NCBI GenBank assembly: GCA_003332035.1
Contig: QOQI01000002.1
Coordinates: 31,949 to 95,948, forward strand
Length of the DNA stretch: 64,000 nt
Source of the DNA: Paracoccaceae bacterium
Lineage (GTDB): Bacteria; Pseudomonadota; Alphaproteobacteria; Rhodobacterales; Rhodobacteraceae
Direction: 5' to 3'
The first letter of the stretch is position 1. Each line of letters begins with the position of its first letter. Below the pieces are notes generated by a model. The model was not told the origin of the DNA and did no database searches. It saw only the letters and a program-made list of their open reading frames with translations. The position numbers and the translations under genes are program-made. This document shows, in pieces, positions 33,498-48,473 of this stretch.

Positions 33498-34487
33498 CTA
33501 CCAAGGGTCAACAAAATTTGCTGGAAGCAGTAACCCTAAATCTCGTGATGTTTGAATATCTTTTTTTCTTCTCTCGCCCGGCAAGCGAACTCCCTCTACC
33601 TCTTCGATATTGAGTAATAATTTTTCTAAACGATTAAAAAAGGAGCCTTTATCTTTTCCTGGATCTATAAACATTAGAAACTGGCCTACACCTGGCGGAT
33701 CACCATCGGGATCGAGAAATGAACTGGCTTCATTACTCGGCCTACCACCAGAAAATGATGCGGCTAATATTTCAACCATAAGGGCCAATGCACTGCCTTT
33801 AGCTTCTCCAATGGGCAACATTGATCCTTTTAAAGCTAGATCAGGATCAGTCGTTGGATTTCCTGAACTGTCCAGCGCCCACCCTTCGGGTATTTTAGTA
33901 TTCACCTTTTTTGCATGCATTATTTTTCCACGGGCAACCTTGGATAAAGATAAATCTATAACTAAAGGATCTTTTGTTATTCGTGGAACTGAAAAAGCTA
34001 TTGGATTTGTGCCGAAAAATGGATCTTTGCCGCCCCAAGGAGCAATTGCCTTAGGTGTGTTTGCCATCATTAACCCGATTAGACCCCGATTAGCTATTTT
34101 TTCGACCTGCACAGAAAGAGCGCCGCAATGATGCGAATTAAAAATTGATACTACAGCACTCCCATATTCTTTTGCAATTGAAGCACCTTCAGAAATAGCC
34201 TGATCAAGAGCAGGATATGCAAAGCCATAATCAGCATCTATTGATATAGAAGCTGGCTTAGGATGTTCTATTTTAATTTCAGCATTTACGTTGATTTTCT
34301 TTGATTTAACTTGAGCGATATAATCTTTGACTCGCGAAAACCCATGACCAACCTGACCCTCGGCCTCCGCGGCAACGAGAGCCGTTGAAACTGATGCGGC
34401 AACATCTTCTTTTACGCCATTTTTAAGGAATACTTCTTTTACTAACTGTTCAGCTTCAGAAATTGAAACCCTGGTCTCTAAAGTCAT
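33498..34487 (-). CDS. comC: Ldh_2 family oxidoreductase, probable (2R)-3-sulfolactate dehydrogenase (ComC-like)
   Basis: GHGFSR, SHHCG, GTNPIAF and KGSALALMVE motifs. Substrate inferred from its position after suyAB. Confidence 0.65.
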   Translation of the reverse strand: MTLETRVSISEAEQLVKEVFLKNGVKEDVAASVSTALVAAEAEGQVGHGFSRVKDYIAQVKSKKINVNAEIKIEHPKPASISIDADYGFAYPALDQAISEGASIAKEYGSAVVSIFNSHHCGALSVQVEKIANRGLIGLMMANTPKAIAPWGGKDPFFGTNPIAFSVPRITKDPLVIDLSLSKVARGKIMHAKKVNTKIPEGWALDSSGNPTTDPDLALKGSMLPIGEAKGSALALMVEILAASFSGGRPSNEASSFLDPDGDPPGVGQFLMFIDPGKDKGSFFNRLEKLLLNIEEVEGVRLPGERRKKDIQTSRDLGLLLPANFVDPW

Positions 34488-34507
34488 TTGAAACCTCTTG
34501 TTAATAA

Positions 34508-34526
34508 GTGGCTGCAAAGCAGCCAC
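34508..34526 (-). terminator. Hairpin between suyB and comC (weak terminator or stabiliser)
   Basis: GTGGCTGC-AAA-GCAGCCAC, an 8-bp perfect stem followed by TTATT on the minus strand. Confidence 0.5.
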
Positions 34527-34540
34527 CAAACTTATCTCAC

Positions 34541-35722
34541 CTAAGCACTTCTATAAAGTTTTGTCATAGAAAATTCACGGTGACCAAGTGCTTCTGCCGC
34601 AGTGTTTCTACCATTTGCTGTTCTTCGGATCATATCTATGAGAGCATCTCCTGCTTCGTCGATTGTTTGATCTCGTCTAAGAATTCCAGATACATCAACA
34701 TCAATATGTTCGCCCATGGTTCTAACAGTTCTTGGATTAGCTGTTATTTTGATCACTGGTACAATCGGGTTTCCTACTACATTGCCCTGCCCTGTCGGAA
34801 ATGTATGTATAACAGCTCCGCCTGCTGCCATAAGGGTCACACATTCTGCAGCTGCTGATGAGCTATCCATAAAATACAAACCTTTTCCTGAGTTGGGTTG
34901 TTCTGCGGGATCTAAAATATCTATGTATTGAGATGTTCTGCCGATTTTTTCTAAATTACCCAAAGCTTTCTCTTCAATCGTCGTTAACCCACCAAGTATG
35001 TTACCCTTGGTCGGCTGACTGTCAGAAAGATCATCCGTTTGATGCGCAAAAATAACATCATCTTGGTAAGCCTTCCACATCTTATACCAACGCTCACCGA
35101 CTTCCTCATTGATGGCTCGCTTTTGACAAATATGTTCAGCACCGGTTATTTCTGATGTTTCCCCGAAAAATCCAGTAATTCCTTCTGGTAAAAGTTTGTC
35201 ATACATGTTGCCAACCGTAGGACATGAACCCAAGCCTGTCGTCGTATCACTCTCGCCACATTTCGTAGAAACCCAGAGTTCTGAAATAGAACATTCTTCT
35301 CGCTGTATCTCAGTCGCTTTGTGAACAAAATCTTTCGCAGCCCAACTAGCTGCCCTTATCGTTTCAAAGTCACCTTTTTGCTCAATTGAGAATTCCGCAA
35401 CTTCTTTACCTGTCTCACGAATTCCATCAGCAATTCGCTTTGTCCAATCAGGTTCAATTCCAATTACAACCACTGAATGAATATTTGCATTACTGCCAGT
35501 ACCGATCATTGTACGGAAATGTACTTCCAGATCTTCCCCAAATTGCAGCCGGCCATATGCATGAGGAATTGCCATAGTTCCTTTTACATTATTAGCCACA
35601 GCTTCACATGCCGCATTTGAAATGTCGTCAACTGGGAGTATCAAAACATGATTTCTTACGCCAACACGCCCATTTTCTCTACGAAAACCCTTAACAGTTA
35701 TATTTGAATATTTTGATGCCAT
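34541..35722 (-). CDS. suyB: (2R)-sulfolactate sulfo-lyase beta subunit (UxaA family)
   Basis: [21 protein letters not shown] and [12 protein letters not shown] motifs; paired with a small SAF subunit; hps context. Confidence 0.88.
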
Positions 35723-35732
35723 TTCTCTTTCC

Positions 35733-36023
35733 TTACCAGCGTTTGGTTTTGCAATTGTGTGTATGAACGTGTTCGCCTTTAGGGATATCGGCTATTACTT
35801 TCCCAATATCTTCCCCGTATTTAACTGCTGTGTCACCGTCCTTTAAATCTTTAAGGGCTATCTTGTGCCCAATTGGTACATCTGCACCCGCAGTAAGCGT
35901 AAAAGTTGAATTGTCGTGGGTCACACAACAAAACATTTCAGTTCCAGCCGTTAAGCCTTCAACCACAACAACACCAACATTATCTTCATGATCGTGTACT
36001 AAAAGATGCGGTATGTTCGACAT
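35733..36023 (-). CDS. suyA: (2R)-sulfolactate sulfo-lyase alpha subunit (SAF domain)
   Basis: [20 protein letters not shown] and [13 protein letters not shown] motifs. Confidence 0.88.
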
Positions 36024-36040
36024 ATTTTTCTCCTATTTTA

Positions 36041-37021
36041 TTAACAATTTGGGCTTAGTAAAACTTTTGGAGAGGCTATTTTACCCTCTCTGATTTCTCT
36101 AAAAGCTGTATTTCCTTCTGACAGCGGTCTTCGCTCAATCCAATCTAAGGGACCTAAGCGACCATCAAAAATCGCTTGAGCAGTATCCATAAAATCTCCT
36201 GCAGTATACGTATAGGTTCCAATGAAGCTGACTTCTTGCAGGGTTATTCGCCTCACATCAATTCCACCAGTATCTTCACCTAATCCTATATGCGTAATAA
36301 CTCCTCCAGGCGATACTTTTGCAGATGCTATTTCACGAGTTTTTTTAAATCCCACTGCATCTACTACAATTGAGAAAAATTGATCAACTTTTTCAACGGA
36401 AATTACGTGACATTTATCATTAAGATATTTTCTGCGAATAGAATTTGGTTCGACTATTATTATGTTTTCAATTCCCATTGCCTTAAATGCTAAAGCAGAT
36501 GCCAAACCTATCGCGCCTCCTCCTACAATTAATACGCTTCTATCCATACTCGGATGCAGAGCCTCAATAGCCAATCTGGCAGCATGCCAACTAACCGCCA
36601 ATGGTTCTGTTAAAGCAGCTTTGTCTAAAGAAATATTAGAAGGAACCTTTACTAAATTTGTTTCGGGAACTGCTACCATCTCTGCAAAAGTACCTTCACG
36701 TGGGGCCATTGAAATGATTTGACGGTTTGGACATATATTTTCACGTCCAGCCTTACATGCCTGGCAATTCATGCAGGTTACAAGCGGGTTAATTGTGACT
36801 CTTTCGCCATCACGATCACCACCAGAAATTATTCCCGATGCCTCATGACCCAATATCAAAGGAGCTGGTCTACGTGCATCGTGACCAAGGTAAGCATGCA
36901 TATCGGAGCCACATATCCCGGCACTATCAACATTTATTAACTGCTCCTTAGAATTTACTGTAGGATCTGCAACTTCACAAAAATCTAATTTTTCCTCTCC
37001 AACATAGACTAGCGCTTTCAT
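36041..37021 (-). CDS. hpsP: Zn-dependent alcohol dehydrogenase, probable DHPS 2-dehydrogenase
   Basis: CGSD, GHE and structural-Zn Cys cluster; follows hpsN-hpsO. Confidence 0.75.
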   Translation of the reverse strand: MKALVYVGEEKLDFCEVADPTVNSKEQLINVDSAGICGSDMHAYLGHDARRPAPLILGHEASGIISGGDRDGERVTINPLVTCMNCQACKAGRENICPNRQIISMAPREGTFAEMVAVPETNLVKVPSNISLDKAALTEPLAVSWHAARLAIEALHPSMDRSVLIVGGGAIGLASALAFKAMGIENIIIVEPNSIRRKYLNDKCHVISVEKVDQFFSIVVDAVGFKKTREIASAKVSPGGVITHIGLGEDTGGIDVRRITLQEVSFIGTYTYTAGDFMDTAQAIFDGRLGPLDWIERRPLSEGNTAFREIREGKIASPKVLLSPNC

Positions 37022-37779
37022 TTTGCAGTAAACCCCCCATCTACCATTAGCACCTGACCAGTGACGTAACTAGAAGCTTCAGAGCAAAGAAATAGTAGAG
37101 GGCCATCTAGATCTTCCATCTCCCCATTTCTGCCAATACACGTCTGTTCGGCATTTCTTTTGGATCGCTCTGCATCTTCAAAAACTATTTGAGTTAATTC
37201 TGTGGGGAAAAAGCCCGGACCAATGGCATTAACGCAAATGCCGTGAGACGACCAGGCTTCGGCCATTGCTCTTGTCAGCTGTCCAATAGCACCCTTTGAA
37301 GCACCATATGCTATACCGCCAGGAAATGCCCTAGTGGTTTGTACCGATGCAAAATTTACAATTCTTCCCCAGCCTTTCTTTTTCATTTCAGAAACAAGGA
37401 GCTGGGATAAAAAGAATGGGGTCGATAGATTTAATGAAATCGTTTGATCCCATCCAAGATCGGTCACCTCATCAGCCGTTTGCCGAGTATTAACTCCAGC
37501 TGCGTGAACTAGAATATCTGGTGGACCAAACTTGCTATTTATTTCCAAACACAAGTCTGCCAATCGTCCGCGATCAGAAATATCAGCAGATATATAAGAA
37601 AAATTTTCTCCCAACTCCAAAGCTAAAGTTTCCAATACCTCTGTTCGCCGAGCCACGCCGACAACTTTAGCCCCAGCGACAGCAAGTACCTCGGCTGCGC
37701 GACGGCCCAACCCAGAACTTGCACCCGTCACAACAGCGACTTTTCCCCCAAGATTAAATAAAGAATCAAATCTATCCAT
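37018..37779 (-). CDS. hpsO: SDR, probable DHPS 2-dehydrogenase
   Basis: TGASSGLG and YGASK motifs; sits between hpsN and hpsP. Confidence 0.75.
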   Translation of the reverse strand: MDRFDSLFNLGGKVAVVTGASSGLGRRAAEVLAVAGAKVVGVARRTEVLETLALELGENFSYISADISDRGRLADLCLEINSKFGPPDILVHAAGVNTRQTADEVTDLGWDQTISLNLSTPFFLSQLLVSEMKKKGWGRIVNFASVQTTRAFPGGIAYGASKGAIGQLTRAMAEAWSSHGICVNAIGPGFFPTELTQIVFEDAERSKRNAEQTCIGRNGEMEDLDGPLLFLCSEASSYVTGQVLMVDGGFTAK

Positions 37780-39079
37780 TAGCAGTTAAATCAAACTCCT
37801 CGTTAGGAAAAAACTTAGCCAAACGGACGTCAGCAGCCCTTGCATGACCCTCCATTCCCTCCAATCGAGAAATCCTAGCTGTTGCTTCAGCAATCGATTT
37901 TGACCCCTCTCTTGTTGCTCTTTGATATGTCACTATCTTCATATATTTGTGGACGCTCAAACCACCAGTATAATTAGCAGCTCTTGAAGTGGGCAAAACA
38001 TGGTTGGTTCCAGCGGCTTTGTCACCATAAGAAACAGTTGTTTCCTCACCCAAAAATAATGAACCATAACAGGTCAGACGTTCAAGCCACCAATCAAGAT
38101 CATCAGCCTGAACTGTAAGGTGTTCAGGCGCATATTCATCAGAGCAAGCAGCCATTTCTTCTCTATTTTCGCAAACAATTACTTCAGCGTAATCCCTCCA
38201 AGCCGCAGCTGCATTATCACGATTAGTTTCAGGAAGATCATCTATTAACTTTGGAACTAAGTTCATAACTTTACTTGCTAAAGCTTCATTGTCGGTAACT
38301 AACCAAACTGGTGAATTATAGCCATGTTCAGCCTGCGAAACTAAATCAGTAGCGACTATAAAAGGATCTGCATTACAGTCTGCTAAAATCAAACTATCTG
38401 TAGGCCCCGCTATCATATCTATTCCCACTCGCCCAAATAAGATGCGTTTTGCTTCCGCTACAAACTGGTTGCCGGGACCAACTAGAATATTGGCCTGTGG
38501 TAATCCAAACAAACCATATGTCATAGAAGCAATCCCCTGGACACCGCCCATGGCCATTATTTTGTCAGCACCACAGACATGTGCTGCATAAACAATGGCT
38601 GGAGCGACGCCAACATTCGGTTTTGGCGGTGAACACGCTGTTATAAATTTACACCCAGCAACTTTTGCAGTTGTCACAGTCATAATGGCGCTAGCAATAT
38701 GACTATAGCGACCACCAGGAACATAACACCCAGCTGCATCAACAGGGATGATCTTTTGGCCTGTAACAAATCCAGGATGAATTTCAATTTCAGTGTTTTT
38801 TAATGTTTCTTTCTGCTTTTCCGCAAACCGTTTCACATTATCATGCGCAAACTGAATATCCTTTTTAAGCTTAGCCGGAACTAACTCACTCGCTGCTTTT
38901 ATTTCTTCATCTGTTAAAATTATATTCCCTTGGTATTTATCAAATTTTGAGGCGTACTCCTTAGCTTTTGAATCACCGCCAGCTTCTATATCTGTGAGAA
39001 TATTTTTTACCGTTTCATGAACCTCTGAGGCATTCGATTTTGCTGTAAGTTGTGCCTTCTTAAGGTATATTCGTGACAT
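37772..39079 (-). CDS. hpsN: Sulfopropanediol (DHPS) 3-dehydrogenase, HisD paralogue
   Basis: HisD fold (GPGN, AGPTD, SQAEH, APEHL) with GDK where HisD has GDY; sulfonate operon context. Confidence 0.85.
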   Translation of the reverse strand: MSRIYLKKAQLTAKSNASEVHETVKNILTDIEAGGDSKAKEYASKFDKYQGNIILTDEEIKAASELVPAKLKKDIQFAHDNVKRFAEKQKETLKNTEIEIHPGFVTGQKIIPVDAAGCYVPGGRYSHIASAIMTVTTAKVAGCKFITACSPPKPNVGVAPAIVYAAHVCGADKIMAMGGVQGIASMTYGLFGLPQANILVGPGNQFVAEAKRILFGRVGIDMIAGPTDSLILADCNADPFIVATDLVSQAEHGYNSPVWLVTDNEALASKVMNLVPKLIDDLPETNRDNAAAAWRDYAEVIVCENREEMAACSDEYAPEHLTVQADDLDWWLERLTCYGSLFLGEETTVSYGDKAAGTNHVLPTSRAANYTGGLSVHKYMKIVTYQRATREGSKSIAEATARISRLEGMEGHARAADVRLAKFFPNEEFDLTANG

Positions 39080-39094
39080 ATTTGTGTCTCCTGT

Positions 39095-40147
39095 TTAGAG
39101 CGACTGCTCTTTTTTGTTATAGCGAACGGATGAAAACAGAGATAATCCAATGATTATTGCTCCGATAGCTCCAGTAATAGTTTCGGGAACTTCAATTATA
39201 GATTGAGCAAACATTATGATCGAAAGAGCAAAGATTGAGTAAAAAGCACCATGCTCAAGATATCGAAACTGCTGTAGCGTTCCTTTTTCGACTAACATAA
39301 TAGTCATCGCGCGAACATACATCGCACCGATCCCAAGACCTATGGCTATTAAAATAATGTTTGTCGTTAATGCAAAAGCTCCAATGACACCATCAAATGA
39401 AAAACTAGCATCAAGTACTTCCAAGTATAAAAATGCTCCTAGACCACCTCGAGCACCCATGTTGGATGCACTATTTGAATAGTTATCAAGGAAACTTCCT
39501 AGTCCATCCACAAGAGTGAAGATCAATAAACCAGAAACGGCTGAAAGAAGAAATGAAGCTTGCTGATTTTCATGAACTACCTGGGACATGATTGAAATAA
39601 TTATTAAGACAATTGCGATGTCGAAGCCTCGTATTGAACCCCACGTTCGCAAATTTTTTTCTAAACCGACGATCCAATCAACTGATTTATCCTTATCTAT
39701 AAAAAACTTAAGTGAAACCATTATCAAAAAGGTTCCTCCGAAAGCAGCAATTGAACTATGTGATTGATGAATAATGTGAGAATACTCGTCGGGATCTGAA
39801 AGAGCTAAGTGGACCGCAGCAAAAGGATTTATCCAAGCGAAAGTCGCAACAATTGCTACTGGAAAAACTATACGCATCCCAAAAACCGCAATTAGTATCC
39901 CCCAAGTTAAGAACCTCTGGCGCCAGATAGGGGTCATCTCAACTAACTTGTTGGCATTCACTATTGCATTATCAAAAGACAGAGCAATCTCTAGTGCAGC
40001 CAGAACTGTTCCTACTAGCAAAAATGAAAAAACTGCACTTAGTGTTTTCTCTGTTTCCCAGCCCAACCAAGCTGACAATACCAGGCCAATAAAAGTAACA
40101 ATTAAAGGCCACTTTAGATAGGAGACTACAGATCTTTTTTGAGACAT
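39095..40147 (-). CDS. DUF475 / TerC-clan integral membrane protein
   Basis: LEIALSFDNA, LEVLDASFSFDGVIGAFA and YLEHGA motifs; start trimmed to MSQK. Confidence 0.85.
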   Translation of the reverse strand: MSQKRSVVSYLKWPLIVTFIGLVLSAWLGWETEKTLSAVFSFLLVGTVLAALEIALSFDNAIVNANKLVEMTPIWRQRFLTWGILIAVFGMRIVFPVAIVATFAWINPFAAVHLALSDPDEYSHIIHQSHSSIAAFGGTFLIMVSLKFFIDKDKSVDWIVGLEKNLRTWGSIRGFDIAIVLIIISIMSQVVHENQQASFLLSAVSGLLIFTLVDGLGSFLDNYSNSASNMGARGGLGAFLYLEVLDASFSFDGVIGAFALTTNIILIAIGLGIGAMYVRAMTIMLVEKGTLQQFRYLEHGAFYSIFALSIIMFAQSIIEVPETITGAIGAIIIGLSLFSSVRYNKKEQSL

Positions 40148-40151
40148 AGGT

Positions 40152-42614
40152 TTATTGCCCAAAGACTTGGTTTGGCAACCAGAGTACAATTTGTGGGAAG
40201 ATAAAAATTAGTATCAAACCAATAAGTTGAATTAGCATAAACTGCATCATTCCAAAATAAATATCTTTCAGATCCCAGTTTGGCACAACGCCTTTTAAAA
40301 AGTATGCAGACAAGGCTACTGGTGGCGATAACCAAGCCGTTTGAAGGTTTACAGCCACCAAAATTCCGAACCAAACCATAAGATCATATGGGTTCAAGCC
40401 ATGGATATCCAAGGAAGCTACAGTAGGCAAAAGTATTGGAACAACGATAAGTACAATCGGCACCCATTCTAAAGGCCAGCCAAGTAAAAATATCAATGCC
40501 ATTACCATAATTAAAATCAAGTAAGGAGATAAATCTAATTGAAGCATCATCTCCGTCATCATTTTAGGTGTTCCTAGAGATGAGAACTCTGCACCGAAGA
40601 AGTTTGATGCTGCCACGAGAAACATAATTAAAACTGTTATTTCCAAAGATTTGACCAGATTATCAAAAAACCCTGGAATTGTGAATTTTCCATATCCAAT
40701 CGATAGGAGAATTGCACCAAAGGCACCCATCGCCGCTGCCTCAGCAGGTGTAGCAAAACCAAGGAGTATTGAACCCAAAGCGAACGAGATTAAAATTGTG
40801 GGAGGCATTAAGCCTGCGAAGAATTCATCCCATAAATCTGAGAATTTAAACCGTTCTGCAGCATCTTTATGGTATATAGCCAAACTTAAAGCACCGAGGA
40901 AAACAGCAAATAAAAATAGGACCAGAGACACCCAGGGAATACTGTTACCCCATGAAGTTAAAAGATAATAAAAATGAAATAGAATTGCTAATGGTAGCGA
41001 TAATCTCAGAATATTTAAATTTCGATAAGCCCGGAGCGCAAGAAATACCGTTCCAAGTAAAACAAGTAAACCACTGAATGGAACAACGCTAGCAAAGGCT
41101 CCGCTGATACCCAACCCAAACACACGACAAATTGTGAGAACACCCAAAGAAATCAATGCAATTTCAGCTCCGTAATGGTCAGACGTTTTTGGTTGATCTT
41201 CTTCTGATAATATTGGGCCTAACTCAGGGTTAAGCCAGCAACGTCCAAGTGTATAAAGTAGATACAGCGAGGCTAGCAGCGCACCTGGAATAAATGCGCC
41301 ACGAAACAAATCTAATGTTGAAACTTCAAGTACTGGCCCCATGACAATTAACATAATTGATGGAGGTATAAGGATGCCTAAAGTACCACCGGCCGTTATA
41401 GTACCAGCAGCCATTCGAACATTATAACCAGATCGAGTCATAGTCGCGCCAGCCATAATTCCCAAAAGCGTTACAGATGCGCCAACAATACCCGTTGCAG
41501 CGGCAAAGATAGTGGAAACAATCAATACGGCAATATAAAGGGAGCCCCGAACGCGCGACATAATCATTTGAATAGACGCAAATAGACGCTCCATTAGCCC
41601 TGCTGCCTCCATAACAATTCCCATAAGTATAAATAATGGAACGGCCATTAATTGGTCATTCAACATGGTAGAATTTGTATTCAATGTCATAAGTAATGTT
41701 GTTAATTTGAAGTTAGACCCCCAAATACCAAAAACAAACGCAAGAAATATAAGTGTAAATGATATTGGAAATCCAATAAAAATTACAAAAATCATTGCCG
41801 CCAGCATGATCATACCAATAGTTGGCTTAGACAACCCCGGCCTTGTTGACATAACGTCAGTGAACCACTCTCCTCCTGGCGTTAAGTCTGGGAAAAAGAC
41901 GGCCATAACCAACCAAATAAGAGCTATCAAATATAATGGGAAAATCCTTACAAACTGTTTCTCTCGTTCCTTGCCCATTTTGTGGAATGCTCTAAACAAC
42001 TCTGGAAAACCTTGTAGCATAAGAAGCAAACCACCAACTGGCATAGCTAAGCGTGCAGGCCAGAGCACCGGCTGCCAAACACTATCAAATGCTGTTTCTC
42101 CAGTTAGGTAAGCTACCTGCCAATATTGTGCTGCAATGATAGTAAAAAAAGTCATCGATGGAATAAAAAATGCCATATAAAGAATAGCATCTACCGTTGC
42201 CTGAGTTTTATCACTCCAATTGCGGTAAAGAAAATCAGCTCTAATATGAACGCCACGCATTAGACCATATCCCGCAGCACCCATAAATAAAGCCCCTGCG
42301 ATCATTCGACTGATATCATAAGCAAAAAGTGTGGGCCCAAGGCCCAAAGAACGGGCTGTATCATCCCAGCCGTAGCTAGACATAATAGCAAAGGAATTTC
42401 TGGAAATAACCTCAAATACAACTACAGCTATTAAGGGAACCATGAGCAGACAAAGCGCCTTGCCAGCAAAATCATTCAATCGGTCAATAAAACCAGTAAT
42501 TGGCCTCTGCCATGACGTCATATCGGCCGGTGTTTCACCAGGTCTTTCTGTTCGCCGTTCGGCGATCAGCTCGTCCGCAATTTCTAAATCATCGGGCACC
42601 TGTTCTTCCGCCAT
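40152..42614 (-). CDS. TRAP transporter fused small+large permease (DctQ-DctM)
   Basis: N-terminal DctQ (HIRADF) followed by DctM (AVPLFILMG, GTLGILIPPS, ATPAEAAAMGA, WLSPPV). Confidence 0.9.
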   Translation of the reverse strand: MAEEQVPDDLEIADELIAERRTERPGETPADMTSWQRPITGFIDRLNDFAGKALCLLMVPLIAVVVFEVISRNSFAIMSSYGWDDTARSLGLGPTLFAYDISRMIAGALFMGAAGYGLMRGVHIRADFLYRNWSDKTQATVDAILYMAFFIPSMTFFTIIAAQYWQVAYLTGETAFDSVWQPVLWPARLAMPVGGLLLMLQGFPELFRAFHKMGKEREKQFVRIFPLYLIALIWLVMAVFFPDLTPGGEWFTDVMSTRPGLSKPTIGMIMLAAMIFVIFIGFPISFTLIFLAFVFGIWGSNFKLTTLLMTLNTNSTMLNDQLMAVPLFILMGIVMEAAGLMERLFASIQMIMSRVRGSLYIAVLIVSTIFAAATGIVGASVTLLGIMAGATMTRSGYNVRMAAGTITAGGTLGILIPPSIMLIVMGPVLEVSTLDLFRGAFIPGALLASLYLLYTLGRCWLNPELGPILSEEDQPKTSDHYGAEIALISLGVLTICRVFGLGISGAFASVVPFSGLLVLLGTVFLALRAYRNLNILRLSLPLAILFHFYYLLTSWGNSIPWVSLVLFLFAVFLGALSLAIYHKDAAERFKFSDLWDEFFAGLMPPTILISFALGSILLGFATPAEAAAMGAFGAILLSIGYGKFTIPGFFDNLVKSLEITVLIMFLVAASNFFGAEFSSLGTPKMMTEMMLQLDLSPYLILIMVMALIFLLGWPLEWVPIVLIVVPILLPTVASLDIHGLNPYDLMVWFGILVAVNLQTAWLSPPVALSAYFLKGVVPNWDLKDIYFGMMQFMLIQLIGLILIFIFPQIVLWLPNQVFGQ

Positions 42615-42701
42615 AACCAAATCTCCCCTATCATAGTCTCCCTTTTCGATTTGGGAGATTTTCTGAATAACAAAAGAGCTTTTAGCTCTTTTCTAATTAA
42701 G

Positions 42702-42729
42702 AAAAAATGTGGAGCCAATAGGCTCCACA
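42702..42729 (-). terminator. Intrinsic terminator-like hairpin after dctP
   Basis: TGTGGAGCC-AATA-GGCTCCACA, a 9-bp stem followed by a T6 tract on the minus strand. A second hairpin AAAAGAGCT/AGCTCTTTT lies at 42672-42692. Confidence 0.7.
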
Positions 42730-42742
42730 ATAGATCAAAATA

Positions 42743-43837
42743 CTACTTCAAAGTTGCCGCGTGAGCTCTTCCCAAACCAGCATTTGATGTTTGAGCACCA
42801 GCCCAGAAAGGAATAGCTATATCAGCAAAATCTTTTTGTGACTGCCAAACTTCAGCAAAAAATTCATTTTCTGCTGCAGCTTCTTCAAGAAGCTTCTTGG
42901 CTGCTGCCATATATTCTGTAAAATAGTCAGCAGGCGTATCCTCTAAAATAACACCATCATTCTCTACAAGTTCTTTAAGAGCCTTACCATTAGCTAAAAT
43001 TCTGTAAGATAGAGATTTTGAAAGTGACGCATTTGCTGCAACTTCCAATGCTTTCTTTTCCGTAGCAGACAAACTGTCATATACATCACCATTAACGTAT
43101 AAATCTGCATTAACAGTTACCTGGTGAAGACCCTGCAAGTAATAATGCTTCAGTACTTTTTGGAAGCCAAATACTTGGTCAGGTCTTGGACAGCACCATT
43201 CAGCAGCATCAATTGCACCTTTTTCAAGAGCAGGCAAAATATCACCGCCACCCATGGCAACAGCCGCAACACCAATTTCATTATATGCAGCGCCAACCAT
43301 GCCTGGAGGTGCACGGAAACGTAGCTTACGGAAATCATCCATGGACTCTATTTTGTTTGGGAACCAGCCTAATGCTTCTGGACCAACTGGCTGTAACATA
43401 AAACCTTTTACGTTAACACCCATCTCGTCCCAAAGCCGGTCATAAAGTTCTTTACCACCGCCATATTGAAACCACGATAGGAATGCGATGTTGTCAATAC
43501 CAACACCCGCACCGGCAATTGGTGCACCAAAAAGGTTAGCTGCAGGGTGCTTACCGCCCCAATAGTGTGTCCAAGCAAAACCAGCCTCAACAAGACCAGC
43601 ATCAACTGCGTCTAAAATATCACGCGGTCCAACAACAGCTCCTGCAGGCAAGATTTCGATTTTCAACGAACCACCTGTTAGCTCAGCGACGTCCTTTGCA
43701 AAGTCTTCTACCATGCGAACTTCGTCACCTGAAACAGGAAGCACAGACTGCAGACGAATGACGGTTTCTGACATTGCTGCAGAAGCCAAGAGAGCAAGGG
43801 ATGTAGCCCCTGCGGTTAAAAATTTAAAATTGAACAT
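42743..43837 (-). CDS. TRAP transporter substrate-binding protein (DctP, TakP-like)
   Basis: Signal peptide; LKIEILPAGAVV, LRFRAP and ALEKGAIDAAEW motifs; GGGAGG SD. Confidence 0.9.
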   Translation of the reverse strand: MFNFKFLTAGATSLALLASAAMSETVIRLQSVLPVSGDEVRMVEDFAKDVAELTGGSLKIEILPAGAVVGPRDILDAVDAGLVEAGFAWTHYWGGKHPAANLFGAPIAGAGVGIDNIAFLSWFQYGGGKELYDRLWDEMGVNVKGFMLQPVGPEALGWFPNKIESMDDFRKLRFRAPPGMVGAAYNEIGVAAVAMGGGDILPALEKGAIDAAEWCCPRPDQVFGFQKVLKHYYLQGLHQVTVNADLYVNGDVYDSLSATEKKALEVAANASLSKSLSYRILANGKALKELVENDGVILEDTPADYFTEYMAAAKKLLEEAAAENEFFAEVWQSQKDFADIAIPFWAGAQTSNAGLGRAHAATLK

Positions 43838-43957
43838 GAATCTCCTCCCATAGTTCATTGTCTCCTTGTTTAAAAAATAATAGCTAAGTCGGAGACTTTT
43901 CTTAGCTTATATTTAAAGATGCTTTTTGCATCCCTATTCTAATTAAGACATCAGCTG

Positions 43958-45553
43958 CTAAGCCTCCTTCAAAATTAAATCACTTGCTTTTTCACCAATC
44001 ATTATGGCTGGCGCATTTGTATTTCCACTTGTAATCTTCGGCATGATTGATGCATCAGCCACTCGTAAGCCTTCAACACCTCTTACCTTCAATGTGGGGG
44101 AAACCACCGACATTCCATCAGTTCCCATTTTGCATGTGCCGGTTGGATGATAAATCGTAACAGCAGTACTTCGAACCCAGTCCAACGTGCCCTCTTCATC
44201 ATCTAAAGGCACATCCAAGCCTGGTGCATATTCCTCTAAAACATGATCCTTTAATGGTTTATGGCTCGCTATCTTGCGAGCGATCTGAACGCCTTTAACA
44301 ATAGTTCTACAGTCCGTATCTGTTGCCAAATAGTTTGGATGAATAACTGGGTGATCTAAATAGTTTGGAGACTTTAAACTTAAATATCCTGTACTTTCTG
44401 GTCTCAACTGAAGAACAGACGCCGTGAACGCCGAAAAAGTGTGTGTACCTTTTGAAGGCATGTCTGCACTAAACGGTTGAATGTGAAATTGAATATCTGG
44501 AGTTTCCAGATGATCTTCTGTTTTAAGAAAACCTGTACCCAAGCTTGCAGCCATGGTCATAGGGCCACGCTGAGTTAGTATATACTGAAGCCCTATTAAA
44601 GCCTTTTTAACATAATTACTCGTTTCTGTGTTTATAGTAGATAGATCTGTCTTAAAGACAGGCCGCGCTTGGAGATGATCCTGCAAATTTTTTCCAACGC
44701 CCACTAAATCACTAACCACCTCTATTCCCAAATTTTTTAGATCTTCTCCTGGACCAATTCCAGACAGCATAAGAAGTTGTGGAGAACCTATTGCACCGGC
44801 ACAAATAATAATTTCTTTCTTGGCTGAAATTGTAGCCAACTTATTTTTTATATCGATGTCTACAGACGTTGCCCGCCCATCAACAATATTCACTTTTTTG
44901 GTTTGAGCGTTTGTAAGAATTTTTAAATTTTTTCTACTTTTAAAAGGCGTTATGTAAGCTGCAGATGACGAACATCTACGACCACCTTTCATCGTTAATT
45001 GAAAGTGGCCTACTCCTTCTTGTGAAGAGCCATTGTAGTCATAATTACGTTGATACCCTGCTGCAACAGCTGCATCGACCCAGTTGTCGACAATATCCCG
45101 CTTCAATCTAGACGATTGTACAGAAAGAGGACCCTCTTTACCCCTCAATCCAGTTTCATCAATACCGTCCCAATTTTCTGAACGCTTGAAATATGGTAAA
45201 ACTTCATCCCAAGACCAACCCATGCACCCAAGTTGAGACCAAATGTCAAAATCCTGCGGCTGCCCTCGAACGTAAAGAAGACCGTTAATTGAACTAGATC
45301 CACCCATAACCCGTCCTCTTGGCCAGGGAATGGATCTACCTGCAATTCCAGTGTCTGGTTGAGTTTCGTAACGCCAGTCAGATTTTGGATTTCCCATTGT
45401 ACTGAAATATCCAACGGGAACATGTATCCACGGATTATTATCTGGAGGGCCTGCCTCAACTAGAGCAACGCGATAGTTTCCACATTGCGATAGGCGGCTC
45501 GCAACTGCACAACCCGCAGATCCAGCGCCAACGACAACGTAATCAAACTCCAT
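43958..45553 (-). CDS. GMC flavin oxidoreductase, probable isethionate dehydrogenase (IseJ-like)
   Basis: GAGSAG, GGSSSING, YHPTGTC and GNTNAP motifs. The IseJ guess rests on the IclR-GMC-TRAP-TerC layout; the family call is more secure than the substrate. Confidence 0.6.
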   Translation of the reverse strand: MEFDYVVVGAGSAGCAVASRLSQCGNYRVALVEAGPPDNNPWIHVPVGYFSTMGNPKSDWRYETQPDTGIAGRSIPWPRGRVMGGSSSINGLLYVRGQPQDFDIWSQLGCMGWSWDEVLPYFKRSENWDGIDETGLRGKEGPLSVQSSRLKRDIVDNWVDAAVAAGYQRNYDYNGSSQEGVGHFQLTMKGGRRCSSSAAYITPFKSRKNLKILTNAQTKKVNIVDGRATSVDIDIKNKLATISAKKEIIICAGAIGSPQLLMLSGIGPGEDLKNLGIEVVSDLVGVGKNLQDHLQARPVFKTDLSTINTETSNYVKKALIGLQYILTQRGPMTMAASLGTGFLKTEDHLETPDIQFHIQPFSADMPSKGTHTFSAFTASVLQLRPESTGYLSLKSPNYLDHPVIHPNYLATDTDCRTIVKGVQIARKIASHKPLKDHVLEEYAPGLDVPLDDEEGTLDWVRSTAVTIYHPTGTCKMGTDGMSVVSPTLKVRGVEGLRVADASIMPKITSGNTNAPAIMIGEKASDLILKEA

Positions 45554-45658
45554 TAATCCACCCAGTATCAAAAAATGAGACTTTTTTTCTCGATTATTGA
45601 AATTTTATACGTTACAGTTAATTTTAAAGAACGCAATAGGTTTATTTTAGGAAGTAAA

Positions 45659-46426
45659 ATGACAGGCAAAGAAAGAATACCGACAAATTTAAGGACACTT
45701 CTAATTCTAGAGATACTGGGAAAACATAATCGAGCTATGACTGCCACTGAAATTAACGATTCTTTGCGATTGCCAAAACAAACAGTACATCGTTTGTGCA
45801 GTACTTTAGAAGAAAATGGTTTTCTAACGAGAGTTGGTCACACAAAACGTTATCAAGCGGCACGCCGATTACGAGACTTAGGTATGGGGTTATTATATAA
45901 CTCTCGGGATCACATCGCACGTCGTCAGATTCTACTAAATATTTCAAATAAAGTAAAAGAAACCGTCAACTTTGTAGTTCCAGAAGCTTCTGGAATGAAC
46001 TACATAGATCGCGTTGAAACCGACTGGGCATTCAGAATTCAACTTCCGATAGGAACCAACGTACCGTTTCATTGTACCGCTAGTGGAAAATGCTTTTTGG
46101 CCAGTCTAAGTCCTAAGAAAAGGTTGGCTATGATACAGGCAATGGACTTGAATGCGCATACTAAAAGAACTCATGTTAAACAGGAAACTTTACTGTCAGA
46201 ACTGAAACAAGTTTCAAAACAAGGCTATGCTTTAGATCAAGAAGAATTTATGGATGGTATGGTAGCAATAGCCGTACCGGTTAACGATAATCATGGACGA
46301 TTTGCTGCTGCACTTGCATTTCACGGACCCACACAAAGAATTTCAGTAGAAAATGCTTTGGCCCGAAAAGACATCTTAACAAAGGCAGCAAAACAACTTG
46401 CCGACAGCCTATTTAGTGAAGGTTGA
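45659..46426 (+). CDS. IclR family transcriptional regulator (IseR-like)
   Basis: HTH LPKQTVHRL; effector domain PFHCTASGK and GYALDQEE; divergent from the GMC gene. Confidence 0.88.
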   Translation: MTGKERIPTNLRTLLILEILGKHNRAMTATEINDSLRLPKQTVHRLCSTLEENGFLTRVGHTKRYQAARRLRDLGMGLLYNSRDHIARRQILLNISNKVKETVNFVVPEASGMNYIDRVETDWAFRIQLPIGTNVPFHCTASGKCFLASLSPKKRLAMIQAMDLNAHTKRTHVKQETLLSELKQVSKQGYALDQEEFMDGMVAIAVPVNDNHGRFAAALAFHGPTQRISVENALARKDILTKAAKQLADSLFSEG

Positions 46427-46434
46427 AAAATAAT

Positions 46435-47619
46435 CTAAATTCCACAATCAACAATCGCTTTTGCAAGAATCGAAACAGTGTTAGAATTTAGGCCTGCTAT
46501 ATTTAATCGACTATCACCTACCATATAAACGGCATGGTTTTCTCTTAACGCACTAACTTGTTGTGCAGAAGCCCCAAGTCGTGAGAACATACCACGATGA
46601 TCTGCCAAAAACCCAAATCGATTTGATCCAGATAAATTTTCTAATTCAGTTGCTAATTGGGTACGCAGTGAAAGCATCGACTGCCTAACCTCCTCAAGTT
46701 CTGCCATCCAATTACTTCTAAGATCTTCATCAGACAAAACCATTGTTACTAAACGAGCACCATGGTCTGGTGGAAAGGAAAAGTTTTGACGATTTAAAAA
46801 AGCGAGAGTCGACTGATTTATAATACGAGCGTCTTTGTTATGTGATACCACTGTTAATAGACCTGTTCTTTCACGATAAATACCGAAATTTTTAGAACAA
46901 CTAGCTGCTATTATTGTTTCTGGCACACCGCTCACGAGCTTTCTGACTCCAGCAGCGTCTTCTTCCAAACCATCGCCAAAACCCTGATAGGCAATATCTA
47001 TCATTGGCGTAGCCCCAGATTTGAGCAAAAGCTCAATTACTGCATCCCACTCAGGCGCCTTTAGATTTGCACCCGTTGGGTTGTGGCAACAGCCATGCAG
47101 CAAAATAATATCACCCTCTTTTGCTTTTGCCAAATCTGCCATCATTGCAGAAAAATCAACCGCTCGAGTTTTGGCATCAAAATATCGGTACGGTTCGACA
47201 GGAATTCCTAAATATTTTAGAATTGAAAGATGGTTTGGCCAAGTAGGATCCGAAACGAAAACCCTAAGGTTGGGATTTGCTAGTTTACCTAACTCAAAAG
47301 CTTGCCGCACCGCTCCAGTTCCACCCGGTGTTGCCGCAGAAGCTGTTAAGCTTTGGTCAAAATTTTCGCCCAAGATAAGATTAACCAAAGCTTCCGAAAA
47401 TTCAGGTGTTCCTGTTAAACCAACATATGACTTGGTTTCTTGGGTTTCCCACAATAAATGTTCAGCTTTTTTAATTGAGTGCATTATTGGAGTTTGCCCA
47501 GAGGCATCTTTGTAAACGCCAACACCAAGATCAATTTTATTTTCTCTAGGGTCTTCTTTATAGAGCTGTACAAGAGCTAGAATTTTATCTGCAGGTTGTT
47601 GTTGCAACGAATTAAACAT
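46435..47619 (-). CDS. tyrB: Aromatic amino acid/aspartate aminotransferase (class I)
   Basis: LGVGVYKD, HGCCHNPTG, DIAYQGFG and SCSKNFGIYRER motifs. Confidence 0.88.
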   Translation of the reverse strand: MFNSLQQQPADKILALVQLYKEDPRENKIDLGVGVYKDASGQTPIMHSIKKAEHLLWETQETKSYVGLTGTPEFSEALVNLILGENFDQSLTASAATPGGTGAVRQAFELGKLANPNLRVFVSDPTWPNHLSILKYLGIPVEPYRYFDAKTRAVDFSAMMADLAKAKEGDIILLHGCCHNPTGANLKAPEWDAVIELLLKSGATPMIDIAYQGFGDGLEEDAAGVRKLVSGVPETIIAASCSKNFGIYRERTGLLTVVSHNKDARIINQSTLAFLNRQNFSFPPDHGARLVTMVLSDEDLRSNWMAELEEVRQSMLSLRTQLATELENLSGSNRFGFLADHRGMFSRLGASAQQVSALRENHAVYMVGDSRLNIAGLNSNTVSILAKAIVDCGI

Positions 47620-48473
47620 TATTTATCCCCCGTTTCTACAGGTACAGTTGGATACATGCCCCACTCAGTCCAACTTCCATCGTAAAGCGCGTGGTCAGAT
47701 TTCCCAATGCGATCTAGAGCTAAATTTATGATTGCTGCCGTAACTCCTGAACCACAACTGGTTATCGCCGGCTTTTCTAAATTTACATTATTGGATTTAA
47801 AATGATTGATCAGCTCATTTGGAGATTTCAAAGTACCGTCATCATTTAGGAGATCACCATAGAAAACATTCTTCGAACTTGGTATATGGCCTGACCGAAG
47901 TCCTGGCCTGGGTTCGGGCTCGTCTCCTCTGAACCTTCCGGCAGATCTCGCATCAATAATTTCATAATTACCCAATTTTGAAGCGGCCGATACTTGGGTC
48001 ACATCTTTGACCATTTTGTCTTGGTATTTAACAAACATATGCCTATCTCTTATCAAAGACGGAATGTTGTCAACGGGTCGCCCCTCTCTTAACCATTTAG
48101 GAAATCCGCCATCAAGAACAGCTACATTTTGTTGACCCATTACATTAAACAGCCATCTAACACGAGCCGCTGAAAATAGCCCGTGCGAGTCATAAATTAT
48201 AATTTGGTGCCCATCCCCAACGCCAAGTTTTCTAACTTTGGACATGAATTTTTCAACTGGGGGTACCATATGGGGTAAATCGGAACGATGATCAGAAATA
48301 TCATCAATATCAAAGTATCTAGAATTTGGAATATGAGATTTATCAAACTCAGCTTTTGCATCTCTATCAATATTAGGAAGGTACCAAGTGGCATCCAAGA
48401 TACGAATTTCGGGATCAGATAATCGGCTAGAAAGCCAATCAGTTGAAACTAAAACCTTCGGATCATTTTCCAT
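47619..48473 (-). CDS. sseA: 3-mercaptopyruvate sulfurtransferase
   Basis: Tandem rhodanese domains; active loop CGSGVT; YDGSWTEW. Confidence 0.92.
   Translation of the reverse strand: MENDPKVLVSTDWLSSRLSDPEIRILDATWYLPNIDRDAKAEFDKSHIPNSRYFDIDDISDHRSDLPHMVPPVEKFMSKVRKLGVGDGHQIIIYDSHGLFSAARVRWLFNVMGQQNVAVLDGGFPKWLREGRPVDNIPSLIRDRHMFVKYQDKMVKDVTQVSAASKLGNYEIIDARSAGRFRGDEPEPRPGLRSGHIPSSKNVFYGDLLNDDGTLKSPNELINHFKSNNVNLEKPAITSCGSGVTAAIINLALDRIGKSDHALYDGSWTEWGMYPTVPVETGDK

Follow-up and report, generated by a model that had tools for sequence, protein, structure and literature searches.

Can a single regulator and a single transporter serve the catabolism of two hydroxysulfonates, the C2 compound isethionate and the C3 compound 2,3-dihydroxypropane-1-sulfonate (DHPS), in one marine bacterium? 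The question is raised by a gene string in a 64,000-nt stretch of contig QOQI01000002.1 (hereafter the window) from an uncultured pelagic Rhodobacteraceae bacterium, in which a regulator, a dehydrogenase and a transporter resembling an isethionate module are followed directly by genes for the breakdown of DHPS and sulfolactate. We consider it likely, though well short of certain, that this string is a merged two-hydroxysulfonate operon. The initial annotation had proposed that one regulator and one transporter serve both the C2 and the C3 compound. Sequence comparison supports that part of the proposal, while the single promoter that it implied is unproven on account of a hairpin that follows dctP. 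The layout below was obtained from the open reading frame (ORF) listing together with Pfam and NCBIfam scans.

45659..46426, plus strand: iclR, an IclR-family regulator, IseR-like (HTH_IclR and IclR_C domains)
45577..45593, no strand assigned: candidate operator, inverted repeat GAGAC-N7-TCTC, about 35 nt upstream of the GMC start
43958..45553, minus strand: GMC flavoprotein, probable isethionate dehydrogenase, IseJ-like (GMC_oxred_N and GMC_oxred_C domains)
42743..43858, minus strand: dctP, solute-binding protein from a TRAP (tripartite ATP-independent periplasmic) transporter, SAR11_0864 type (DctP family match)
42708..42729, minus strand: terminator-like hairpin directly 3' of dctP (9-bp stem with 6 G-C pairs, then T6)
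40152..42614, minus strand: dctQM, fused TRAP membrane protein of about 820 aa (DctQ at residues 64-212, DctM at residues 274-811)
39095..40147, minus strand: DUF475 (TerC-clan) membrane protein (PF04332, 346 bits)
37772..39079, minus strand: hpsN, (R)-DHPS 3-dehydrogenase (727 bits against PDB 8wwe)
37018..37779, minus strand: hpsO, short-chain dehydrogenase/reductase (SDR) acting as DHPS 2-dehydrogenase (373 bits against PDB 8wwf, 'HpsO')
36041..37021, minus strand: hpsP, zinc alcohol dehydrogenase-type DHPS 2-dehydrogenase (416 bits against PDB 8wwd; ADH_N and ADH_zinc_N domains)
35733..36023, minus strand: suyA, small SAF subunit of sulfolactate sulfo-lyase, 96 aa (SAF domain)
34541..35722, minus strand: suyB, large subunit of sulfolactate sulfo-lyase, 393 aa (GD_AH_second and GD_AH_C domains)
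33498..34487, minus strand: Ldh_2 dehydrogenase, possible (R)-sulfolactate dehydrogenase, ComC-like (Ldh_2, 327 bits)

The gene order and the divergent IclR gene are thus as first described. ATG codons at 45553 (GMC), 45659 (iclR), 42614 (dctQM) and 40147 (DUF475) were taken as the realistic starts, which leaves a divergent region of 105 bp between iclR and the GMC gene; an alternative iclR ATG at 45575 would lie merely 3 nt from the GMC ORF. Spacers of 99 nt and about 128 nt separate GMC from dctP and dctP from dctQM, respectively. From dctQM through suyB the junctions are all 17 nt or less, or overlapping, in agreement with the initial annotation: 4 nt between dctQM and DUF475, 15 nt between DUF475 and hpsN, overlaps of 8 nt (hpsN/hpsO) and 4 nt (hpsO/hpsP), 17 nt between hpsP and suyA, and 10 nt between suyA and suyB.

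In the proposed scheme, the IseR-like regulator, probably acting at the conserved palindrome in the divergent promoter region, would control a transcript that begins with the IseJ-like GMC gene, and the TRAP importer with its SAR11_0864-family binding protein would take up both isethionate and DHPS. The GMC enzyme would oxidise isethionate to sulfoacetaldehyde, to be turned into acetyl phosphate plus sulfite by Xsc and Pta encoded on another contig. DHPS would be racemised by HpsO and HpsP and oxidised by HpsN to (R)-sulfolactate, from which SuyAB would release pyruvate and sulfite, with the Ldh_2 enzyme linking sulfopyruvate and (R)-sulfolactate. Sulfite from both branches would be handled by SoeABC and TauE, encoded at the xsc locus.

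The C3 half of this scheme is the more readily recognised. HpsN scored 727 bits against PDB 8wwe, deposited as '(R)-DHPS dehydrogenase', and 535 bits against HpsN of Cupriavidus pinatubonensis (8v35), far above its 220-253 bits against structures of histidinol dehydrogenase (HisD); it is therefore a HisD-fold protein nearer to characterised HpsN than to HisD, and hpsO and hpsP adjoin it. The structure matched by HpsP, 8wwd, belongs to the same deposit series as 8wwe and 8wwf, the HpsN and HpsO entries. Compared with the canonical hpsR-hpsKLMNOP loci of related genomes, HpsN is 76-83%, HpsO 62-66% and HpsP 56-62% identical. The suyA and suyB products form a split UxaA-type pair (SAF plus GD_AH), both members of which fall far below the galactarate dehydratase cut-off; SuyA matches the N-terminus of that enzyme, and its gene is kept after hpsP in several loci and lineages. 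For SuyB, identity is 87-99% among related Roseobacter loci and 64-80% for those of SAR116, SAR11 and Hyphomicrobiales. As judged from their sequences, the hps and suy genes are genuine DHPS and sulfolactate genes, as the initial annotation had proposed. In the pathway as described in PMC11382572, HpsO and HpsP interconvert the DHPS enantiomers, HpsN forms R-sulfolactate, and SuyAB yields pyruvate and sulfite. The Ldh_2 protein can be assigned at family level only; its best solved relative is piperideine-2-carboxylate reductase 1wtj (192 bits), followed by the sulfolactate dehydrogenase ComC of M. jannaschii, 2x06 (155 bits). Its gene follows suyB in three lineages (loci L005 and L008 and the SAR116 locus L106).

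HpsN, HpsO and HpsP are thus orthologous to those of the hpsR-hpsKLMNOP(-slcD) cluster of Ruegeria pomeroyi and of the hpsRNOUP-suyAB cluster of C. pinatubonensis, and the SuyAB end-step matches the 'SuyAB pathway' of C. pinatubonensis and D. shibae (PMC11382572). In contrast to these canonical clusters, however, the window locus is without the LacI-type regulator HpsR, the transporter HpsKLM and HpsU, and has uptake and regulation borrowed from an isethionate-type module.

What, then, does the borrowed transporter carry? Pairwise alignment of the binding protein with SAR11_0864 of Ca. Pelagibacter ubique HTCC1062 showed 56% identity (352 aa, 410 bits, E = 7e-148). A search of Pelagibacteraceae genomes placed the match at 833340-834422, and the HTCC1062 ORF there lies at 833343-834434; this ORF was identified as SAR11_0864 because it ends directly before 834435-834636, the published intergenic region between SAR11_0864 and SAR11_0865 (PMC2704228). 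Orthologues at 67-73% identity are present in most other SAR11 genomes or strains. The binding proteins associated with hpsNOP form a separate cluster (cluster 3) of a sequence similarity network of HpsK-like proteins, which includes SAR11_0864, a binder of isethionate and of both DHPS enantiomers, and membership of which is set at about 40% identity or more to SAR11_0864 (PMC13335735). SAR11_0864 requires Ca2+ (PMC11485210). The window protein lies above the threshold of that cluster, at 56%, and has hpsNOP in the same gene string.

Two other identities for the binding protein were considered and rejected. As an R. pomeroyi-type HpsK it failed, with 22.8 bits against the solved RpHpsK (PDB 24gc) and 22% identity (30 bits) to canonical HpsK, the canonical reference itself scoring 660 bits against 24gc. 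As a homologue of R. pomeroyi-type IseK it failed likewise, at 29 bits and 26% identity over 107 aa. The suggestion in the initial annotation that the transporter is of the IseKLM type was thus not upheld, and the protein belongs instead to the SAR11_0864 family. Its best solved relatives are TakP-like proteins, listed as 2hzk, SmoM, 4pet and 2zzv (lactate-binding TTHA0766). A homologue search with the dctP product returned near-identical metagenome proteins only, under generic names, and no orthologue was found in a small unrelated order of 25 genomes. The fused DctQM protein contains about 120 extra hydrophobic residues (approximately 469-591) inside its DctM domain, relative to DctM profiles.

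The GMC protein was placed by a family search across 401 Rhodobacteraceae genera, in which identities fell into tiers: at least 62% in about 46 genomes, 56-62% in about 56 genomes, and 54% or less in the others. In a sample of the middle tier, 14 of 15 loci have the GMC gene divergent from a DctP, DctQ, DctM and IclR series (clade B). According to a passage in PMC4334477 that cites Weinitschke et al. 2010, the isethionate cluster of R. pomeroyi DSS-3 is ordered iseJ-iseK-iseL-iseM-iseR (SPO2359-2355). Clade B was taken as R. pomeroyi-type iseJ because its gene order is this published one. In both trees built, one with FastTree (112 sequences) and one with IQ-TREE (39 sequences), the window GMC and the GMCs linked to window-type TRAP genes form clade A (support 99), the sister of clade B (support 99-100), with 99 at the joint node. 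The phylogeny thus puts the enzyme in the isethionate (IseJ) lineage, as anticipated, and it is 57-61% identical to GMCs of R. pomeroyi-type iseJ loci.

Further relatives in the GMC family adjoin xsc (L086, L095), xsc-pta-soeABC (L102, L103) or tpa/tauA (L100, L101). Among the matches listed, no genome carries both the upper- and the middle-tier GMC. In the locus of a Puniceispirillaceae metagenome-assembled genome (SAR116; L079:403-11500), a GMC of the window clade is followed by R. pomeroyi-type IseK and IseM, 81% and 76% identical to the Roseobacter proteins, beside suyBA-hpsPON; it follows that clusters alike in other respects have exchanged the two types of TRAP transporter. On the basis of the trees, the linkage to xsc and taurine genes, the two clades that do not co-occur, and this pairing, we infer that the GMC protein is an isethionate dehydrogenase.

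No xsc is present within the 64-kb window, as noted at the outset, and a search of the rest of the genome (a 1.39-Mb assembly of 48 contigs, about 60% complete) recovered it on contig C44, with 903 bits against a cut-off of 676. The surrounding locus (C44:185-12636) is a complete taurine/sulfoacetaldehyde locus with a taurine-type binding protein, tpa, a MocR regulator, xsc, pta, the sulfite exporter tauE and soeABC. The C2 branch therefore has its end-steps, because xsc, pta, tauE and soeABC are all found there. The search for hpsKLM and hpsR recommended by the initial annotation was also carried out. Canonical HpsK, LacI-type HpsR and R. pomeroyi-type IseK were not found in the window genome or in a same-genus genome (G071, 98% complete), with an HpsK query validated at 660 bits against RpHpsK. 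The window-type TRAP transporter thus appears to be the sole candidate importer for DHPS and isethionate in this organism. The nearest public relatives are single-cell and metagenome-assembled Rhodobacteraceae. In a Roseobacter genome of another genus (G234), a window-type operon and a canonical hpsR-hpsKLM-hpsNO cluster are both present (L126, L127). There is a separate hpsN in each, at 76% and 80% identity to the window gene.

As for the regulator, alignment of the window IclR with the IclR protein of R. pomeroyi-type ise loci shows 42% identity across 246 aa, which bears out the assignment of the window protein to the IseR lineage and suggests, by homology, that it is an IseR equivalent. 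In about 77 related loci, too, iclR and the GMC gene are read divergently. Of 77 such intergenic regions, 66 contain a GAGAC-N-GTCTC-like repeat, GRGA-N6-9-TCYC, that precedes the GMC start by about 35 nt, and its arms vary together across loci (GAGA/TCTC or GGGA/TCCC). The intergenic regions of R. pomeroyi-type iseJ/iseK loci have a similar motif, TGAGAC..GTYYC. This repeat would be the operator. A scan of the window genome gave no convincing further site, and none at xsc. The GMC-dctP spacer holds, at 43886-43898 and 30-40 nt upstream of dctP, the perfect palindrome AAGTC-TCC-GACTT, bordered by a GCTAAG/CTTAGC repeat; it may serve as a second regulatory site or form a small hairpin.

Does this regulator control the whole string? 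The strongest alternative is that there are two or more regulatory units, with IclR controlling GMC and dctP only, the hairpin acting as a terminator, and dctQM to Ldh_2 read from a promoter of their own, perhaps in response to another signal. The hairpin with its T-run after dctP is strongly terminator-like and leaves about 85 nt before dctQM, and almost every related locus, whether of Roseobacters, SAR116 or SAR11, has a GC-rich hairpin at that point. Because the hairpin is so conserved in position, dctQM to Ldh_2 may need read-through or a second promoter, and control from a single promoter is to that extent unproven. Moreover, the hpsNOP genes of Planktomarina, Amylibacter and HTCC2255-type loci retain a LacI-type HpsR-like regulator of their own beside the IclR module. 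However, the membrane subunits and the binding protein are useless apart, so some read-through is to be expected, and a hairpin that follows a binding-protein gene commonly serves to fix the proportion of subunits, not to end the operon. Here, too, the probable effect of the hairpin is an excess of binding protein over membrane subunits. The failure to find an HpsR orthologue in the window genome or in G071 also speaks against separate control, as do promoter-like hits within the cluster, which were fewer than in shuffled sequence. We therefore regard division into separate units as a serious but lesser possibility.

A second alternative confines the operon to C3 compounds. The clade-A GMC would have shifted to DHPS, 3-hydroxypropanesulfonate or (S)-sulfolactate and would feed HpsN, SuyAB and Ldh_2, not Xsc. 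Clade A is separate from the synteny-defined IseJ clade with good support, and it is the clade that adjoins hpsNOP; the operon also encodes an Ldh_2 enzyme, by which sulfopyruvate would be reduced to (R)-sulfolactate, and xsc is unlinked in this genome. In contrast, the iclR-GMC-TRAP module also occurs alone, with no hps genes within 10 kb, in HTCC2150 and others, and clades A and B, never found together among the matches listed, behave as expected of equivalents. The pairing of a SAR116 clade-A GMC with R. pomeroyi-type IseK/IseM, and the ties of the wider GMC family to xsc and taurine genes, likewise argue for isethionate, and a C3-only operon seems unlikely.

Incidental adjacency, with a TRAP transporter for a non-sulfonate hydroxy or keto acid beside a choline or alcohol dehydrogenase unrelated to hps and suy, would suit the automatic names ('mannitol/chloroaromatic TRAP', 'choline dehydrogenase') and the pyruvate, lactate or polyol ligands of the binding protein's best solved relatives, but is highly improbable given 56% identity to an isethionate and DHPS binder (PMC13335735), a GMC protein below the betA cut-offs (578 against 605 bits and 482 against 732 bits) with a separate, 39%-identical GMC forming the BetA-like outgroup in the trees, and linkage to hps, suy or xsc genes that recurs in Roseobacters, SAR116, Rhizobiales and SAR11.

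Several points nevertheless weigh against a merged operon for both sulfonates. With 56% identity to SAR11_0864, the binding protein may have a different specificity. The distinctness of clade A from the synteny-defined IseJ clade makes a substrate shift possible, and the neighbouring GMCs of SAR11 itself (46-48% identity) form a separate clade. The hairpin after dctP could end most transcripts and leave hps and suy separately controlled from the following 85 nt or so. By its match scores the Ldh_2 protein is nearer to piperideine-2-carboxylate reductase than to archaeal ComC. Finally, the window genome is 60% complete, so that the absences lean mainly on G071.

The merged arrangement is not confined to one streamlined genome, as the initial annotation had supposed. 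Across the 80 best-matching loci the divergent iclR and GMC-dctP-dctQM adjoin hpsNOP in most; carriers include HTCC2255, Planktomarina, Amylibacter, Shimia, Marinovum algicola, Litoreibacter, SAR116 and Rhizobiales, and class-level sampling adds more. Three variants were seen. In the first the module stands alone, with no hps genes within 10 kb (HTCC2150; L070, L074, L082, L084, L022, L024); in the second it lies beside an hpsNOP cluster that has its own LacI-type HpsR-like regulator (Planktomarina, Amylibacter, HTCC2255); in the third, that of the window locus, it is fully fused and HpsR is lacking. The layout is thus common in ocean bacteria and no one-off chimera. In the single-cell genome AG-461-P07 (L008:8756-18300; GMC 83% identical), GMC-DUF475-hpsNOP-suyAB-Ldh_2 follows directly after an aminotransferase gene, without iclR, dctP and dctQM, and appears to be a natural deletion of regulator and transporter.

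Comparison with the iseJ-iseKLM-iseR cluster of R. pomeroyi DSS-3 brings out what is shared and what is not. The two have GMCs of sister clades, IclR proteins 41-46% identical, a similar intergenic palindrome, and a need for Xsc downstream. The window TRAP is, however, unrelated to IseKLM beyond family level (29 bits); iseR lies at the far end of the R. pomeroyi cluster, whereas the window iclR is divergent from the GMC gene; and the window locus, unlike the R. pomeroyi cluster, has DHPS and sulfolactate genes attached.

The SAR11_0864-0866 TRAP locus of HTCC1062 shares with the window a binding protein of the same family, neighbouring genes of the GMC, TerC-clan and hps/suy/xsc kinds, and the hairpin after the binding-protein gene. 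It differs in that DctQ (219 aa) and DctM (444 aa) have a gene each, in place of a fused DctQM, and lack the insert of about 120 residues, and its GMC gene, of another clade, lies 4.8 kb from SAR11_0864, whereas in the window all are in one tight gene string. No IclR gene or hpsN was found in the 20-kb stretch of HTCC1062 examined (L117). Upstream of SAR11_0864 in that stretch (L117:6488-9766) lie an SDR gene, an aldehyde dehydrogenase gene and a 3-hydroxyisobutyrate-dehydrogenase-like gene, which could provide an HpsN-independent route from DHPS through sulfolactaldehyde to sulfolactate.

A further constituent of the string is the DUF475 protein. Of 91 loci with the window-type TRAP, 67 also have a DUF475 or TerC gene, against none of 16 loci with R. 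pomeroyi-type IseKLM, a distribution that argues against a simple sulfite-exporter role. Its form and position vary: DUF475 after dctQM in the window (39095-40147), a 221-aa TerC protein directly after GMC in HTCC2255-type loci (L064:11599-12264), and a 196-aa TerC protein directly after the GMC gene in HTCC1062 (L117:2982-3572). A literature search returned nothing on DUF475 and sulfonates. As a speculative suggestion, which we rate as improbable, the TerC-clan protein may be a dedicated partner of this metal-dependent TRAP transporter rather than a general sulfite exporter; such a partner might, for example, expel a divalent cation that enters with the sulfonate, or load metal on the periplasmic binding protein. 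If true, this would make a four-part uptake system of a so far undescribed kind.

Beyond the 3' end of iclR, and abutting it, are genes for an aspartate/aromatic aminotransferase and a two-domain rhodanese (46435-48473). These were considered as members of the system and rejected, as the linkage is kept in the closest relatives only (L005-L008). An FKBP-rhodanese gene adjoins the GMC gene of HTCC1062.

In the transfer of carbon and sulfur from phytoplankton to bacteria, DHPS and isethionate are major currencies. The window-type transporter is the type found in HTCC2255, Planktomarina, Amylibacter, many uncultured pelagic Roseobacters, SAR116 and SAR11, and searches keyed to the canonical hpsK and iseK of R. 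pomeroyi would miss it. The value of the finding is thus mainly one of annotation, in pointing to the transporter and the regulator that many pelagic bacteria would use for DHPS and isethionate. Should a single importer and a single regulator serve both sulfonates, their uptake would be coupled in abundant bacteria, and such coupling would bear on how ocean sulfonate fluxes are inferred from transcripts.

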